Of a stretch of DNA of 64,000 bases, positions 50,526 to 57,770 are shown one piece after another. The translations under genes were made by a program, and so were the position numbers. Position 1 is the stretch's first letter, and every line of letters begins with the position of its first letter. The notes beneath the pieces are model-generated. The model was not told the DNA's origin. It made no database searches and saw only the letters and a program-made list of their open reading frames with translations. The stretch lies in assembly GCA_046759445.1 (NCBI GenBank), contig JBHICG010000007.1, positions 29,027 through 93,026 on the forward strand, written 5' to 3'. The stretch is from Candidatus Scalinduaceae bacterium. GTDB taxonomy: Bacteria; Planctomycetota; Brocadiia; Brocadiales; Scalinduaceae.

Positions 50526-50990
50526 ATGAAGATTTATATCGGCACAGATCATGCGGGCTTTGAACTGAAAGAAGAGCTGAAAAAGTTCCTTGAAGGTTTA
50601 GGTTGTGAAGTTGAGGATATGGGAGCTTATGAATTTAATGAAGCTGATGATTATCCGGATTTCATTTGGCCGGTTGTTAGGGCAGTGGCCGAAGATATAG
50701 CCAAGGGCCTGGATACAAGAGGAATCGTTATTGGAGGCTCTGGTCAGGGAGAAGCGATAGTGGCTAATAAAGTAAAGGGTATCAGGGCAGCAGTCGTTTA
50801 TGATAAATATAGCGCCAGGATGTCGAGAGAACATAATGACGCTAACATAATATCTCTAGGGAATAGGACATTAAGCATTGACGAGGCAAAAGAGTTAGTT
50901 AAGCTTTGGCTGGAGACGCCGTTCAGTAATGAAGAGAGGCATAAAAGAAGGATTGAGAAAATTAGGGCAATAGAAAATGATAATTTGTAA
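50526..50990 (+). CDS. rpiB: Ribose-5-phosphate isomerase B (Glu-type active site)
   Basis: DHAG, DDYPD, GGSGQGE, REHNDAN, RH.RR motifs. Confidence 0.93.
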   Translation: MKIYIGTDHAGFELKEELKKFLEGLGCEVEDMGAYEFNEADDYPDFIWPVVRAVAEDIAKGLDTRGIVIGGSGQGEAIVANKVKGIRAAVVYDKYSARMSREHNDANIISLGNRTLSIDEAKELVKLWLETPFSNEERHKRRIEKIRAIENDNL

Positions 50991-51248: not shown

Positions 51249-52391
51249 ATGCGAAGAACCAGCAATAAACTTTCCTTTGGTTCCGTCTTTATTGTATTTT
51301 CTTCTCTCATTTTTGGTTTTATTTGTTTCCTGCCATCTGTTGCTTTTACACAATCTGCAGATGAACCATACGAACTAAACCTACCTTCATATGTATTGGA
51401 ACCCATAATCCCGGAAGACAATCCATTGATGAAAGGAAAAGTAGATTTAGGTCAAAAACTTTATTTCGACAAACGACTTTCTGCAGATGATACCGTCAGT
51501 TGTGCAACTTGCCATGACCCTAATAAAGGATTCGCAGATGGAGAAGTAGTTGCGATCGGAATAAAAGGACAAAAGGGTGCCAGAAATAGTCCTACCGTGC
51601 TAAACGCCGCCTTTTTTGATACCCAGTTCTGGGATGGAAGAGCATTGACATTAGAGGAACAAGCGAAACTACCCATAACAAATCCAATAGAAATGGGCAT
51701 GCCTTCTCATGATGCTGCCTTAGAGAAAATATCGAACATACCTGAGTACAGAACTGATTTTAAAACTGTCTTTAGTACGGACAGTATTACGATTGATCAT
51801 ATTGCGCAGGCAATTGCATCATTTGAAAGAACGCTTATTAGCTTTAATTCACCATTTGATAGATTTATGGCAGGAGTGGATGATGCAATAAGCGCTTCTG
51901 CAAAAAGAGGCTGGGAGCTGTTTCAGGGAAAGGCACGCTGTTTAACCTGCCATGAATTTAACGTATCTTACCCTTTTTTTACTGATAACAAATTCCACAA
52001 TATAGGTGTCGCAATGAAGGATAAGGATTTTGGACCTCTAGCACGCAAGGCTGACAGCCCTGATGCAGACCCATCCGCACTTGCACGTGAAAAAGCGTCT
52101 TCTGAACTCGGACGTTTTTTAGTGACCAAAGAACCAAAGGATATCGGTGCTTTTAAGACCTCCGGACTCAGAGACATAGCCTCCACCGCCCCGTATATGC
52201 ATGATGGCAGCGAGCCTACACTGGAAAGTGTTATTGAATTTTATGATAAGGGTGGTGTCCCCAATCCCAATCTGGATGGAGGGATCAGGCCGCTTAATCT
52301 CTCAGAAGAAGAAAAAAAGGATTTAGTAGAATTTATGAAGGCTTTAACAAGTGATGACTTACCAGAACTTATTAAGGCTCTTAGTCCATAA
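51249..52391 (+). CDS. Di-heme cytochrome c peroxidase/MauG-family enzyme
   Basis: CATCH and CLTCH, QFWDGRA, NPIEM, TAPYMHDG; Tyr 14 residues after that His; signal peptide. Confidence 0.92.
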   Translation: MRRTSNKLSFGSVFIVFSSLIFGFICFLPSVAFTQSADEPYELNLPSYVLEPIIPEDNPLMKGKVDLGQKLYFDKRLSADDTVSCATCHDPNKGFADGEVVAIGIKGQKGARNSPTVLNAAFFDTQFWDGRALTLEEQAKLPITNPIEMGMPSHDAALEKISNIPEYRTDFKTVFSTDSITIDHIAQAIASFERTLISFNSPFDRFMAGVDDAISASAKRGWELFQGKARCLTCHEFNVSYPFFTDNKFHNIGVAMKDKDFGPLARKADSPDADPSALAREKASSELGRFLVTKEPKDIGAFKTSGLRDIASTAPYMHDGSEPTLESVIEFYDKGGVPNPNLDGGIRPLNLSEEEKKDLVEFMKALTSDDLPELIKALSP

Positions 52392-52441
52392 AATTAAAAT
52401 GCACAATACTCGTGCAAAAGACTTTTTAGGAGGCAAATAAC

Positions 52442-53530
52442 GTGAACATTAAAAAGGATAGACAGGACAGAAAAACAAAATATGAATCATTATCAGAATT
52501 AAACCGTAGAGAATTTTTAAAGACTGCAATTGCAACTGGAGTATTTGCTGCTGGTTCGGGATTAATTACAAGTTGTTCTTCTCAAACGCTTATGCACCAA
52601 GTTGAAGCAAAATACGGAACAGATGAATTTACGTTTGCTTACATATCCGATTCACACCTTTTAGACCGTGGCAGGGATCATAGATTTGCAGTATCATTAA
52701 TAAAGGCAGTAGAAGATGTGAATGCCATGGACCCTCAACCAGACTTTGTACTTTACGGAGGAGACCTGGCACAATTAGGTCTAAAAGAAGAATTATCCCT
52801 CGGGAAAGAAATAATCGCCAAACTAAAACCTAAGTTACATATGATGGTAGGTGAACATGACTGGTATTTTGATATGGGTGAGGTATGGAGGGAATATTTT
52901 GGCAAACCTACATATTCTTTTAATCACAAGGGAATACACTTTATTATACTTAATAGTGTAGTGGTGAAGGATTATTGGTCAGAACCTAAAATGACGCAAA
53001 TGGAGCGAATGCTATTCATGGCGCAACTTGATAATCCAAAGGGCAGGCCATTTACCGTTGGCGAAGAACAACTCAAATGGCTGAGTGATGACCTTGCAAC
53101 AGTAAACAAATATACACCTATTGTGGTATTTTCACATTCACCTCTGTATAAATACTATAAGGCATGGAATTTCTGGACTGACGATGCAGAGGATGTTCAG
53201 GAACTATTATCTCCATTTAACACCGTAACTGTCATACATGGACATACACACCAGGTGCTTACGAATAAGATAAGGAACATTACTTTTCATGGTATGATAT
53301 CAACAGCCTGGCCATGGCCCTATGCGCCAGAAGGTATACCAAAGCTTACGGTTCAAATGGATAGGCCAGATCCATTTAACCAATTTGACGGTACTGGATG
53401 GGGAATAGTCGATACACTTCACGACGGAAACGTTAACAAAACTTATAAACTATGGGATAGGAATCCAATGACTGTTTCATATGATAAGGTATCGACAGGT
53501 AGAGGACTTGTACCAGGACCTTCTTATTAA
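52442..53530 (+). CDS. Tat-exported calcineurin-like metallophosphoesterase, probable lipoprotein
   Basis: NRREFLK Tat motif, LITSC lipobox-like; DSH, GD, GEHD, H, GHTH metal motifs. Confidence 0.88.
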   Translation: MNIKKDRQDRKTKYESLSELNRREFLKTAIATGVFAAGSGLITSCSSQTLMHQVEAKYGTDEFTFAYISDSHLLDRGRDHRFAVSLIKAVEDVNAMDPQPDFVLYGGDLAQLGLKEELSLGKEIIAKLKPKLHMMVGEHDWYFDMGEVWREYFGKPTYSFNHKGIHFIILNSVVVKDYWSEPKMTQMERMLFMAQLDNPKGRPFTVGEEQLKWLSDDLATVNKYTPIVVFSHSPLYKYYKAWNFWTDDAEDVQELLSPFNTVTVIHGHTHQVLTNKIRNITFHGMISTAWPWPYAPEGIPKLTVQMDRPDPFNQFDGTGWGIVDTLHDGNVNKTYKLWDRNPMTVSYDKVSTGRGLVPGPSY

Positions 53531-53545
53531 TTTTAAGCAGATAAT

Positions 53546-53610
53546 AGATTTCCGATCAGGTCGGAAATGACAATGTATACTTTTTGTCATTCCCACAAAA
53601 GTGGGAATCT
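53546..53610. repeat. Back-to-back TGTCA-tagged REP pair
   Basis: AGATTTCCGATCAGGTCGGAAATGACA ... TGTCATTCCCACAAAAGTGGGAATCT. Confidence 0.75.
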
Positions 53611-53725
53611 AGAGACTTAAATCAATAATAGCTTTCGTGATCCTTGGTGTAACGGAGTACCTTGAACATTTAATAAAATATTAATTAATATAAATAGAAC
53701 AAAAATATGATAGGAGGAAATAATA

Positions 53726-54442
53726 ATGAAAACCACATATATTGTTTTTACAAGCCTATTTACCCTTTTGATTGTTTTTTCTATGTCAGCAAAGGCCGAA
53801 AACAACTCAGTTGCTGATAATCCTGGTGTTATCACATCATCTGAAAAACAGTCCGTTCAGATTGTTACTGCCTGTGATGGGAAAAAAAGGGTTATTGTAG
53901 AAGGATACAGAGAAGGAGAACCAATGCCAGAACACAAGGCAAGAGAAGTTGCAAAACTCCTTATGGCCTTAATGGATTTCTGTGAACAAGAAATTACGGC
54001 AAGGTTACCCAAGACTGAGATGGCTTTAAAGCTTTCAGTTAATGGCAATCCTTTCATAAGCGTTAAAGAGATAGAAGAATTACCGCTAGTTTTAGCGCAC
54101 GGAGGAGTACCACACACAGAAAGAGAAAAAAGAGTCTGGACAGCAGAAATGGATCGTCTCATTAGTAATGGATATAAAGTTTTCCATGACCCGACACTTG
54201 GTACAAATGGAATTTCTTGCGACATGTGCCACCCTGATGCCTCTAATACGCACCCTGAAACATACCCAAAATTTCAGACACAAATCAAAAAGGCATCACT
54301 CCTAAGAGATATGATAAACTGGTGTATTGAAAACCCACAAGAGGGTGTAAAGCTTTCAGGTGACGACCCCAAAATGAAAGCTTTGGAGGCATACATAATT
54401 TCTGCCCGTGCTGGTAAAGTCCTTGAATCAGGAAAACACTAA
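53726..54442 (+). CDS. Exported mono-heme cytochrome c with SoxA/TsdA-like fold
   Basis: Signal peptide; CDMCH; YPKF...LRDMINWCIENP.EG..L..DDP.M.ALEAY. Confidence 0.8.
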   Translation: MKTTYIVFTSLFTLLIVFSMSAKAENNSVADNPGVITSSEKQSVQIVTACDGKKRVIVEGYREGEPMPEHKAREVAKLLMALMDFCEQEITARLPKTEMALKLSVNGNPFISVKEIEELPLVLAHGGVPHTEREKRVWTAEMDRLISNGYKVFHDPTLGTNGISCDMCHPDASNTHPETYPKFQTQIKKASLLRDMINWCIENPQEGVKLSGDDPKMKALEAYIISARAGKVLESGKH

Positions 54443-54493
54443 TAAATTCATACCTGCATTGTTGTTATTTTGTAGATTATGAAGATTAGGCTT

Positions 54494-54949
54494 ATGAGAA
54501 TTTATATTGGTACAGACCATGCCGGTTTTGAGCTAAAAGAGGAATTGAAAAAGTTCCTTGAAGGTTTAGGCTATGAAGTAGAGGATAGGGGAGCTTATGA
54601 ATTTATTGAAACTGATGACTATCCGGACTTTGTTTTTCCTGTTGCTAAAGCTGTTGCCGAGGATACTGAAAATAGAAGAGGAATCATTCTCGGCGGTACT
54701 GGTATAGGCAATGGAATTTTGGCAAATAAAGTAAAAGGTATAAGGGCTGGAGTTGTTTATGATGAGTACAGCGCAAAAATGTCGAGAGAACATAATGATG
54801 CAAATGTGATGACATTAGGCGCTAGAACATTACCCATTGATAAGGCGAAAAAATTGGTAAAGATTTGGCTTAATACGCCTTTTAGTAATGAAGAGAAACA
54901 CAAAAGAAGGATTGAAAAAATCAAGCAACTAGAAAATGATAATGTCTAA
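54494..54949 (+). CDS. rpiB: RpiB paralog with atypical active-site loop
   Basis: Close paralog of 50526-50990; GGTGIGN in place of GGSGQGE. Confidence 0.85.
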   Translation: MRIYIGTDHAGFELKEELKKFLEGLGYEVEDRGAYEFIETDDYPDFVFPVAKAVAEDTENRRGIILGGTGIGNGILANKVKGIRAGVVYDEYSAKMSREHNDANVMTLGARTLPIDKAKKLVKIWLNTPFSNEEKHKRRIEKIKQLENDNV

Positions 54950-55679: not shown

Positions 55680-56300
55680 TTATCTTCGCTGACGTTTGTT
55701 TTTTGGACGGACGTCCCTCTTGGGTTTTGGGAAAGGACGCTTTCTTTTGATATCTCTATCTTGAGACTTAAATTCCCTGCGTAATTGTTGCCTGCGTTCT
55801 GGAGGTAGCGATTTCCATTTCTTTCTCTTCTCCTGCAGATGTTTTCTTTGTTCGGGTGACATTCCTCTCAGCCTCTTATGCCGTTCTCTTATTCTATTCT
55901 TTTGTTCTGGAGATAAATCTTTCCACCTGCGATACTTTTGCTTGATAGCTTCTCTTTTGTGAGGAGGTAAATCCTTAAACCTGTGCCAATTATTTCTTAA
56001 TCTATTCTGTTCAGCCGGGGGAAGTTTTTTAAATCGTTTAAAATTATCTCTAATTTTATGTTTATCCTGTTGACTTAAGTTTTTCCATCTTTTATATCGT
56101 TGGCGTATCTTTTCTTTCTCATCCTCAGGCATCGATCGCCAGCGGTTGAGGGAATCCTGATTAAACCTGGAATCAGGCAAATCTACCACATCCTGCGCAC
56201 TGCTTTCCCGGGTAAAAGGCAGAATACCAAAACACCCGTAAAACAACACAATTGACATCAATGTCCTTGAAATGAACAATGAGACATTTTTTCTATTCAT
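55680..56300 (-). CDS. DUF3106-like exported helical-repeat protein
   Basis: Signal peptide; repeated (W/F)..L(S/P)PE.(K/R)..(I/L)R units. Confidence 0.8.
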   Translation of the reverse strand: MNRKNVSLFISRTLMSIVLFYGCFGILPFTRESSAQDVVDLPDSRFNQDSLNRWRSMPEDEKEKIRQRYKRWKNLSQQDKHKIRDNFKRFKKLPPAEQNRLRNNWHRFKDLPPHKREAIKQKYRRWKDLSPEQKNRIRERHKRLRGMSPEQRKHLQEKRKKWKSLPPERRQQLRREFKSQDRDIKRKRPFPKPKRDVRPKNKRQRR

Positions 56301-56574
56301 CGGTCTTCACCTCATTATTAATATCTTCATCAATCATCTTATAATCCTTTAAGAAATCAACTTCTACATCTTGAAACATGTCAAGATTTTCTAATATGTC
56401 TAAATCCTTAATTATCTCCCGATCTTCTTGAGAAATTTCTTTGTCTGTATTCTTTTCTTCCTGATTTTCTACAGTTTTTTCTTCATTATTTTCAGCCAGG
56501 ATTGCGTTGACGTTCATCATTACCATAAAAACTATTAAAAGTGTTTTTTTGTTAACACACATAAGATATTTCAC
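56293..56574 (-). CDS. Small acidic exported protein
   Basis: Signal-like N-terminus; EIIKDLDILENLDM resembles the anti-sigma C-terminus. Confidence 0.65.
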   Translation of the reverse strand: MKYLMCVNKKTLLIVFMVMMNVNAILAENNEEKTVENQEEKNTDKEISQEDREIIKDLDILENLDMFQDVEVDFLKDYKMIDEDINNEVKTDE

Positions 56575-56575
56575 A

Positions 56576-57079
56576 TCAGGATCCTATGGTATTCAAATTT
56601 TCAATGATTTCCCAATCTTCCAACCAATCTATATTTTCAATAATGTCAATATTTTGTACTAACTCCAACTCCCCTAATAGTTCCAAATCTTGCGGATTCA
56701 TTGAAGCCAGCATGTTATCTGTCTTTAGGTTAATAAGATAATTCGAAAATGTCAAAATACATACGATTATGACCATCGATACCGTTGCCCAAACAAAAGC
56801 CGGCTTTCTCACTGTAAAGATGTCTTTTAGGTTTAAAAGGAATCGTTCATACCAGGGCCTCTCTAAGGATAATCTTTCCCAGAAACGGGATATATAGCCG
56901 GGTTCAGGTTCCACATCCTCCCATTTCGAAAGTAGATCCCAGGATTTTTCAAAACGGACCATTTCCTTCTGGCAATGAGGACAATCATTCAGATGCTCCT
57001 TAACTTTTCTCAATTCTTGAGCTTCAAGCTGTGCATCCAGGTATACGGGAATAAGTTTTTGTATACTTTGACAATCCAT
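56576..57079 (-). CDS. Zinc-binding (ZAS, zf-HC2) transmembrane anti-sigma factor
   Basis: MDC...YLD.....HLNDCPHC; single TM segment. Confidence 0.9.
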   Translation of the reverse strand: MDCQSIQKLIPVYLDAQLEAQELRKVKEHLNDCPHCQKEMVRFEKSWDLLSKWEDVEPEPGYISRFWERLSLERPWYERFLLNLKDIFTVRKPAFVWATVSMVIIVCILTFSNYLINLKTDNMLASMNPQDLELLGELELVQNIDIIENIDWLEDWEIIENLNTIGS

Positions 57080-57097
57080 TTTACGTCTCCCTATCTT

Positions 57098-57125
57098 ATT
57101 AAACACATAAACATGAAAAAAGTTT
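57098..57125 (-). promoter_or_regulatory. Putative ECF-sigma promoter before the anti-sigma gene
   Basis: AAAC-N17-GTTTAAT on minus strand. Confidence 0.6.
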
Positions 57126-57155
57126 GTTTTATTTTCATCTAATATAAATTAATTT

Positions 57156-57770
57156 CTAATCGAACTGAATTAAATCTTTTAGCTTTTCTTTTAGATTAAG
57201 TTTAGCTCGACTTAGGAGAGATTTGACCGCTGCAATCGAACAATTCATGGTTTGCGCAATATCATCATAAGAAAGTTGCTCATAACGCCGTAAATTAACG
57301 GCCATACGTTGATTTTCGGGCAAAGAGGCAATTGCATCTTTAACGGCCGCAACTGTCTCCTTTTGATCTATTGTCTGATAGGGATTTTGGTTATCTGCAT
57401 CAGTTAGTTCGTGTTTTACTGGATTACCTTTGACTTCAAAGGTCTCCTCAAAAGAAACGACAGAGCGTTTTTTTCTTAACTCATTAAGACAAGTGTTCTT
57501 GGCGATCTGGTATAGCCAGGTCTGGAATTTGGCCTTCGGTTTATAAAGACGTGCGTTTTTGTAAACCTTAACAAAAACATCCTGAGTCAAGTCTTCGGCT
57601 ACCTCTTTATTGCCCACAAATCTGTATATCAGATTCATGACTCGTTTGTAATATTTATCCATGAGTTTCTCAAAGGATGCTTTATGCCCTTCTTGAAACT
57701 CAAGCATTAGCAGAACGTCTGGATCAGTAAGATAAGGGTTTTGCTCTCCCTGAGAACCAGAAAAAGACAT
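57156..57770 (-). CDS. ECF RNA polymerase sigma factor
   Basis: AEDLTQDVF, FQTWLYQIAKN, LSYDDIA, VKSLLSRA motifs. Confidence 0.95.
   Translation of the reverse strand: MSFSGSQGEQNPYLTDPDVLLMLEFQEGHKASFEKLMDKYYKRVMNLIYRFVGNKEVAEDLTQDVFVKVYKNARLYKPKAKFQTWLYQIAKNTCLNELRKKRSVVSFEETFEVKGNPVKHELTDADNQNPYQTIDQKETVAAVKDAIASLPENQRMAVNLRRYEQLSYDDIAQTMNCSIAAVKSLLSRAKLNLKEKLKDLIQFD

Follow-up and report, generated by a model that had tools for sequence, protein, structure and literature searches.

The characterised di-haem enzymes of the MauG type, which carry tyrosine at a distal haem-ligand position, modify tryptophan in a neighbouring protein. In the MbnH/MbnP pair, for example, a tryptophan in the WxW motif of MbnP is converted to kynurenine, according to the accessible text of PMC11951088. 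Little is settled about what His/Tyr di-haem enzymes do outside the mau and mbn clusters, and BthA of Burkholderia is described, in the available portion of PMC6405878, as having an undiscovered function. A second well-described group is the Sox system of sulfur oxidation, whose components (SoxAX, SoxYZ, SoxB and SoxCD) are taken here in the roles given by the accessible text of PMC5336275. The present analysis concerns a locus with likenesses to both groups, found in a 64,000-nucleotide stretch of DNA (hereafter the window) from an anammox bacterium, a member of Candidatus Scalinduaceae (assembly GCA_046759445.1, contig JBHICG010000007.1). Three co-oriented genes encode a di-haem enzyme (P0001), a metallophosphoesterase-fold protein (P0002) and a mono-haem cytochrome (P0003). 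A comparison across genomes places the pair of phosphoesterase and cytochrome at the core of the locus, with the di-haem enzyme as one of several partners that are exchanged between lineages. A literature search did not find the trio or the pair described, with the proviso that subscription papers and supplements may bear on this.

A GTDB scan with the phosphoesterase yielded at least 571 confirmed relatives, from which the best 80 loci were kept. Among these, the di-haem gene is present in 79, the cytochrome gene in 77 and both in 76; with enough flanking DNA, the figures are 75/75 and 77/77, respectively. The original prediction had proposed a gene-neighbourhood search for the trio, and the trio is indeed conserved. 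Since the best 80 loci are the closest relatives of the query, they describe a single clade (A), with hosts in the Planctomycetota, Myxococcota, Acidobacteriota, Kryptoniota, Nitrospinota, NC10 and methanotrophic Pseudomonadota. In nearly every clade-A locus, the gene directly before the phosphoesterase encodes a P0001 homologue. The named close homologues come from the Brocadiales, from which the host is taken to be an anammox bacterium, and the phosphoesterase was found in 23 of the 81 genomes of the order and is therefore accessory; a core role in anammox was considered and rejected on the same count.

The fixed unit of the system is the phosphoesterase and cytochrome pair. In five overlapping sets of loci with enough downstream DNA, the cytochrome gene adjoins the phosphoesterase gene in 77/77, 44/44, 15/15, 14/14 and 17/18 cases. 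A quick maximum-likelihood tree of the phosphoesterase (89 rows, with every third clade-A row retained) separates clades A, B and D, and the swap of partner genes follows these clades. Clade B comprises rhizobial plasmids, the genome G408 and seven Burkholderiales genomes, and here a cupredoxin-like gene lies upstream of the phosphoesterase and the same cytochrome downstream, with cbb3-like oxidase genes next to or near them; the combination of cupredoxin-like and oxidase genes is found in both rhizobial and Burkholderiales loci. The cupredoxin-like label reflects a His/Cys/His/Met pattern assigned by eye, Pfam finding only a C-terminal carboxypeptidase-regulatory domain. Clade D is made up of 57 of 80 kept metagenome loci together with seven Burkholderiales genomes. 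The di-haem gene is present in just 3/57 of these loci (2/46 with enough flanking DNA), and neighbouring genes in the clade include HiPIP (11/57) and PufC (7/57), with reaction-centre genes in all five tested HiPIP/PufC genomes. A MauG-type gene occurs together with HiPIP, PufC or ccoN in no tallied locus. Genome-wide searches gave no PF03150 match in eight of 14 clade-B/D genomes (G408, G487, G587, G669, G541, G610, G562 and G508) or on Sinorhizobium meliloti pSymA, and the other six genomes hold one to four CCP_MauG genes elsewhere. Finally, a sister clade retains the GEHD motif of the phosphoesterase without the WPW motif (both described below) and without the cytochrome, and has a cupredoxin adjoining in 14 of 16 genomes. 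A link to electron carriers is thus seen in all of the GEHD clades that were examined. That three acceptor cassettes replace one another suggests the pair as a source of electrons, with the His/Tyr enzyme as clade A’s peroxide-driven sink. With a non-sulfur donor counted in, the locus probably encodes an exported module for oxidation whose electron sink can be swapped.

A number of further arrangements were seen in these neighbourhoods. An exported Lcl_C (PF07603) gene, possibly for a maturation factor or accessory subunit, follows the cytochrome throughout clade D (e.g., L110:7532-8116). PufC and HiPIP sit with the module at L156:5612-6757, L236-L239 and L241, with pufLM at least 35 kb away or on other contigs. 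The cbb3-like oxidase linked to clade B (L084:8692-11807, L235:9549-12679) is divergent, scoring below the ccoN/ccoO cut-offs, and has a subunit II with three haem motifs and SCO and hemA alongside. Mixed arrangements include a cupredoxin-like gene, His/Tyr enzyme and pair at L136:961-4340, and the pair with Lcl_C and a His/Tyr enzyme distant from P0001 (37%) at L108:2276-6154; these loci fall either within clade D or at its base. In G366, an AMO/pMMO-family gene (C6:1015797-1016501) is found some 4 kb away from the trio, a second CCP_MauG gene being divergent from it, and G366, like G082, has eight CCP_MauG genes over the cut-off. A link of the betaproteobacterial trio to ammonia oxidisers was rejected, there being no AMO match in G805, G693 and G756.

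P0002 belongs to the calcineurin-like metallophosphoesterase superfamily by both fold and motifs. It scores 55.5 bits against PF00149 (cut-off 21.5), its fold is closest to Rv0805/GpdQ (Foldseek, E about 1e-11), and it carries the DxH, GD, GNH, H and HxH motifs with Glu138 in place of the Asn, reading GEHD at residues 137-140 where GpdQ has GNHD. The predicted dimetal ligands (D70, H72, D108, E138, H232, H268 and H270), whose roles were assigned from the GpdQ alignment and family knowledge, are invariant in 135/135 homologues, and W290, W292 and Y294 are, with E138, equally constant; 135 pairs were aligned from 136 candidates, locus L153 being left out. The GEHD variant and the AWPWPY segment had both been noted in the original prediction, and the conservation that it had sought for WPW is complete at both tryptophans. 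In addition, WPWPY is invariant across all the cytochrome-paired clades, including those without a MauG-type neighbour; G408, for instance, is a single 7.15-Mb replicon that retains WPW and has no PF03150 match. In the sister clade, F/Y-P-x-P replaces WPW, and a plasmid copy without an annotated cytochrome neighbour (L087) has WPL. Kept without the MauG-type neighbour and lost without the cytochrome, WPW travels with the cytochrome and not with the MauG-like enzyme. The WPW loop (residues 288-297) lies below a predicted local distance difference test (pLDDT) value of 50 in the AlphaFold model. Among individual copies, one anammox phosphoesterase (G050:C6:199388-200404) has an internal TGA stop, two genomes of the same genus as the query lack a match, and that of L031 is apparently joined to the cytochrome through a stretch of unknown bases, which is probably an artefact of assembly.

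These observations bear directly on one of the two roles first proposed for the trio, namely modification of hydrolase tryptophan by the MauG-type enzyme, and they weaken it. According to this explanation, the His/Tyr enzyme would be a maturase that oxidises Trp290/Trp292 to kynurenine or a quinone cofactor, with the task falling elsewhere to the cupredoxin-like protein, Lcl_C or self-processing. The family precedent is strong, in that characterised MauG-type enzymes act on tryptophan in an adjacent protein and the MbnP target lies in a conserved WxW; moreover, the methanethiol oxidase cluster also has an adjoining His/Tyr enzyme, and the clade-A enzyme gene sits directly before the phosphoesterase gene in almost every locus. 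It is also stated in the accessible text of PMC11951088 that the maturase which makes the quinone cofactor CTQ differs from one enzyme to another, and a fourth gene, Lcl_C, is peculiar to clade D, seen in 54 loci (some being duplicates of one place). For these reasons the explanation survives, but with WPWPY in 135/135 homologues whatever their neighbours, PF03150 missing from the clade-B/D genomes and pSymA named above, and the motif disappearing where the cytochrome does, it is doubtful.

Turning to the di-haem enzyme, P0001 has haem motifs CATCH at residue 85 and CLTCH at 231, and its PYMH histidine (His318) is followed by Tyr332 exactly 14 residues on, as originally read. Tyr332 is kept in 78/78 locus homologues covering the position and the inter-haem Trp128 in 73/77. 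In sequence alignments Tyr332 stands opposite tyrosine in MbnH (6e1c) and in an annotated Methylobacterium MauG, and opposite methionine in the canonical peroxidases 1iqc and 3o5c, which agrees with the earlier claim that this position separates MauG from classical peroxidases. The match to P. denitrificans MauG pairs query residues 294-337 with chain residues 256-299 over equal lengths, placing Tyr332 at residue 294 if ungapped. With two CxxCH motifs, and tyrosine replacing methionine at the distal position of the E haem, P0001 has the sequence features of a MauG-type (His/Tyr) bacterial cytochrome c peroxidase and not the His/Met E haem of a canonical one. Sequence comparison therefore supports its assignment as a MauG-type enzyme with a predicted His/Tyr second haem. 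Nonetheless, it falls below the cut-offs for MauG (TIGR03791, 256.6 vs 443.85 bits) and MbnH (TIGR04039, 256.1 vs 362.85 bits), and there is no mau or mtoX gene among the open reading frames of the window. The closest His/Tyr structure by sequence is MbnH 6e1c (E 2.8e-49), and BthA 6nx0 is distant (E 4.2e-12). The missing tryptophan two residues before the second CxxCH was tried as a diagnostic but proved uninformative, as the annotated MauG also lacks it; we take this position to be the surface residue Trp199 of MauG. Because a separate canonical His/Met peroxidase is encoded in this genome (contig C5), plain H2O2 detoxification is unlikely to be the whole role of P0001, in keeping with what had been proposed. 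P0001 is predicted to serve as a peroxide-driven oxidant or electron sink. BthA, also a His/Tyr enzyme, turns over H2O2 when given an external electron source, according to the available portion of PMC6405878.

The third protein, P0003, has one CDMCH at residue 165 and MINWCIENP at 196-204, matching the single CxxCH and MINWC..NP of the first description. It scores 42.9 bits against PF21342 (SoxA/TsdA; cut-off 27), and its haem domain superimposes on residues 53-145 of SoxA 1h31 (Z 12.0, rmsd 1.3, 90 residues) and on the TsdA haem domain (Z 11.7, rmsd 3.2, 104 aligned). Cys200, at the ligand position, is present in 135/135 aligned homologues. P0003 is thus predicted to be a mono-haem cytochrome of the SoxA/TsdA fold with His169/Cys200 ligation; its score against the SoxA equivalog TIGR04484 is below the cut-off (37.6 vs 110 bits). 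Cytochromes of clade A also possess an extra N-terminal domain with a conserved Cys50 in the sequence CDG (74/77, the remaining three being gaps). This domain is well predicted in the model and is missing from clade B and D cytochromes, and in a fold search no match stood out (best Z about 5). The Cys50 domain could conceivably replace SoxY, which is found in 1 of 11 clade-A genomes and 17 of 18 genomes with the short cytochrome, although this pattern is confounded by phylum.

Evidence for association of the two core proteins comes from a complex prediction, which scored 0.55 as against 0.00 for the best control and gives weak support, since among scores of 0.60 or under the mark was reached by 18/157 solved complexes and also by the two mismatches that passed; contact agreement between runs was at least 52% and partner pLDDT at least 74. 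The mirror-tree correlation of the pair is 0.85 (0.61 within clade A) and reflects shared descent, so that it does not count as evidence for binding.

The case for sulfur as the substrate class rests on neighbouring genes. Clade-D loci include SoxY (16/57), SoxZ (14/57) and the flavocytochrome c flavoprotein (7/57), in three arrangements, and in clade B SoxYZ and flavocytochrome c are close by in S. meliloti and G408. In G487 and G669, SoxYZ lies beside the pair and SoxC is over its cut-off, with neither SoxA nor SoxB reaching theirs. The SoxY copies beside the pair are divergent, scoring 120.1 (clade D) and 83.2 (rhizobial) against a true-SoxY cut-off of 125, with one of each scanned. The recurring substrate-class neighbours are sulfur genes; no N- or P-specific gene recurs among the neighbour clusters. 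The other role first proposed for the trio, an oxidative-hydrolytic module acting on a substrate containing sulfur, phosphorus or nitrogen, consequently gains support, with sulfur as the likely class judging from the neighbourhoods of relatives.

In its specific form, the proposal is that the pair constitutes an exported enzyme of two subunits for the Sox-like oxidation of a soluble donor. This donor would most likely be a reduced sulfur compound (sulfane sulfur, thiosulfate or polythionate), and the His/Tyr enzyme would be the peroxide-driven sink; we give this proposal an even chance. By analogy with Sox, sulfur would be oxidatively attached to a carrier cysteine, that of SoxY where SoxYZ is encoded and possibly that of the Cys50 domain in clade A. 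The dimetal subunit would then bind the anion and hydrolyse off sulfate, much as SoxB does. Electrons would exit through the cytochrome haem, with the WPWPY loop lying at the subunit contact or acting as an electron relay. In this bacterium they would pass to the di-haem enzyme, whose high-valent state, activated by H2O2, would reduce peroxide to water; in other lineages they would flow to oxygen through the cupredoxin and cbb3-like oxidase, or to a photosynthetic reaction centre through HiPIP and PufC. For the anammox host, the result would be an accessory system that couples removal of reduced sulfur to removal of peroxide.

Several findings weigh against this Sox-like proposal. This genome (G000, 97% complete) has no match to SoxY or SoxC and so does not encode a complete Sox system, and SoxY was found in just one of the 11 clade-A genomes tested; the sulfur link of this window is therefore by homology only. 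A canonical SoxB gene sits directly beside the module at L115, and G651 and G408 hold canonical SoxB or SoxA; since canonical Sox genes can thus accompany the module, it does more than simply stand in for SoxAB. Sequence comparison of P0002 with SoxB detects no similarity (best E 1.3), there is no SoxB (TIGR04486) hit, and SoxB’s second domain, the 5'-nucleotidase C-terminal domain, is missing. P0003 is nearer to the N-terminal than to the C-terminal haem domain of SoxA (45.4 vs 14.0 bits), and the TsdA arginine sites 4 and 14 residues before the haem cysteine are occupied by Met196 (134/135) and, in most of the cytochromes, Gln186. With a 27-residue numbering offset, we take the Gln186 and Met196 sites to be Arg109 and Arg119 of published TsdA. 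From the N-terminal-type match and these substitutions, P0003 probably has no thiosulfate-activating haem of the TsdA type on its own, which weakens the earlier suggestion that the cytochrome might be a catalytic SoxA/TsdA-type partner. Two conserved arginines are named as important for TsdA activity in the accessible text of PMC6879331, the source of that numbering. Furthermore, the E haem of MauG-type enzymes is generally of low potential and their dye-linked peroxidase activity poor (PMC11892367, available portion). Finally, the clade-D genomes are related, apparently incomplete metagenome-assembled genomes, and in many loci of this clade neither an electron-acceptor gene nor a sulfur gene is in view.

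A different account keeps the same wiring and places the oxidation in the phosphoesterase, as a redox-active dimetal centre in which E138 favours di-iron or di-manganese chemistry, acting on a non-sulfur donor such as a reduced nitrogen or phosphorus compound, with the cytochrome only a relay. The GEHD motif is common to all clades, even the cytochrome-free sister clade with its adjoining cupredoxin, the cytochrome lacks the thiosulfate-binding arginines, and clade A, in which one of 11 tested genomes has SoxY, includes anammox, Nitrospinota, NC10 and methanotroph hosts. However, sulfur genes are the only substrate-class neighbours that recur, no nitrogen- or phosphorus-specific gene does so, and we know of no redox-active member of the metallophosphoesterase fold, making this account unlikely. 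An ordinary stress operon, with a peroxide-removing enzyme, its cytochrome donor and an unrelated, merely co-regulated phosphoesterase, would suit the ECF sigma-like and Fur-family genes near 20/80 and 10/80 clade-A loci, respectively, and the treatment of ccp genes as detoxification enzymes in the anammox literature (PMC10156729 and PMC13253579, accessible text), but it is very improbable given the His/Tyr nature of the enzyme, the canonical His/Met enzyme elsewhere in the genome and the persistence of the phosphoesterase-cytochrome pair without the peroxidase.

The strongest form of the Sox-like proposal is that GEHD phosphoesterases and Cys-ligated cytochromes make up an unrecognised periplasmic sulfur-oxidising family, with its own cysteine carrier replacing SoxY in clade A and with peroxide consumed catalytically by a di-haem enzyme that forms bis-Fe(IV), and this is put forward only tentatively. 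If it were true, bacteria without SoxAB, including anoxygenic phototrophs, rhizobia, myxobacteria, methanotrophs and anammox bacteria, would draw electrons from reduced sulfur, and a MauG-type enzyme would have a role other than protein modification. More generally, if sulfur is the substrate, surveys based on soxB and soxA markers overlook a pathway that occurs in many phyla, and there are redox-linked enzymes in a superfamily that is classed as phosphatases. The module offers a test case of three defined proteins, for which the natural versions without the enzyme can act as controls, and cultured, non-pathogenic hosts exist for the trio (Methylocapsa, Methylocystis and myxobacteria) as well as for the oxidase version (S. 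meliloti).

The layout of the locus is collected below. The genes are separated by 50 nt (P0001-P0002) and 195 nt (P0002-P0003). Of the original claim that all three are co-oriented and exported, the orientation stands and the export does so in part. P0002 has a twin-arginine stretch (NRREFLK; R22/R23 conserved in relatives) that falls narrowly below the cut-offs of two twin-arginine translocation (Tat) models (15.9 vs 22.7 and 14.9 vs 16.7), and for P0001 and P0003 Sec signals were assigned by eye. A lipobox-like stretch ending in Cys46 follows the Tat signal of P0002 (window 52562-52579; by eye), suggesting that this copy may be a Tat lipoprotein; the stretch is not kept in most relatives. 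No phosphoesterase cysteine covarying with cytochrome Cys86 was found, and an inter-subunit disulfide was accordingly dropped as a candidate. Promoter and terminator scans of the locus were at chance level. Metatranscriptome contigs from two runs of one study overlap parts of all three genes, with strand, level and co-transcription not readable from them. Two diverged RpiB-family genes lie as direct copies on either side of the trio (window 50526-50990 and 54479-54949), and relatives also have several RpiB paralogues. Just downstream, on the opposite strand, are genes for an extracytoplasmic function (ECF) sigma factor, a zinc-finger anti-sigma factor and a DUF3106 protein (window 55680-57770).

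Coordinates of the trio and its key sequence features within the window
Feature	Position	Strand	Basis
P0001, di-haem CCP_MauG-family enzyme, 380 aa	51249..52391	+	PF03150, 202.5 bits
P0002, twin-arginine metallophosphoesterase-fold protein, 362 aa, GTG start	52442..53530	+	PF00149
P0003, mono-haem SoxA/TsdA-fold cytochrome, 238 aa	53726..54442	+	PF21342
Tyr332 codon, predicted distal-ligand position of six-coordinate haem	52242..52244	+	alignments
AWPWPY motif of P0002 (W290, W292, Y294)	53306..53323	+	alignment of homologues

Compared with the described systems, the locus shares features with each. MauG, which acts on pre-methylamine dehydrogenase, and the MauG-like protein encoded beside mtoX resemble P0001 in the tyrosine at the distal-ligand position and the inter-haem tryptophan, but P0001 is below the MauG cut-off and without mau or mtoX neighbours, and the putative substrate motif persists without the enzyme. 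The MbnH/MbnP pair provides the His/Tyr structure closest by sequence and, likewise, a neighbour with an invariant WxW; here, however, that neighbour is of the metallophosphoesterase fold (PF00149) and not MbnP, and a third, cytochrome gene is always present. BthA and PhosA of Burkholderia offer another case of a His/Tyr di-haem enzyme encoded beside a phosphatase-type gene, PhosA being described as a purple acid phosphatase (PMC6405878, available portion), whereas BthA is without the inter-haem tryptophan that P0001 keeps (PMC11892367, available portion). TsdA has the same haem-domain fold as P0003 and a cysteine in the ligand position, but P0003 has one haem only, with Gln and Met at the two arginine positions. 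Finally, the Sox system resembles the pair in combining a Cys-ligated cytochrome of the SoxA fold with a protein of the dimetal hydrolase superfamily, and SoxYZ lies beside the pair in two other clades. The cytochrome here differs in being mono-haem, without SoxX and without the active-site arginine pair, and the hydrolase in being GpdQ/CpdA-like with GEHD and not alignable to SoxB, in a genome without SoxY or SoxC. The trio is a real and widespread system whose components come from known families, but it belongs to none of these described systems.

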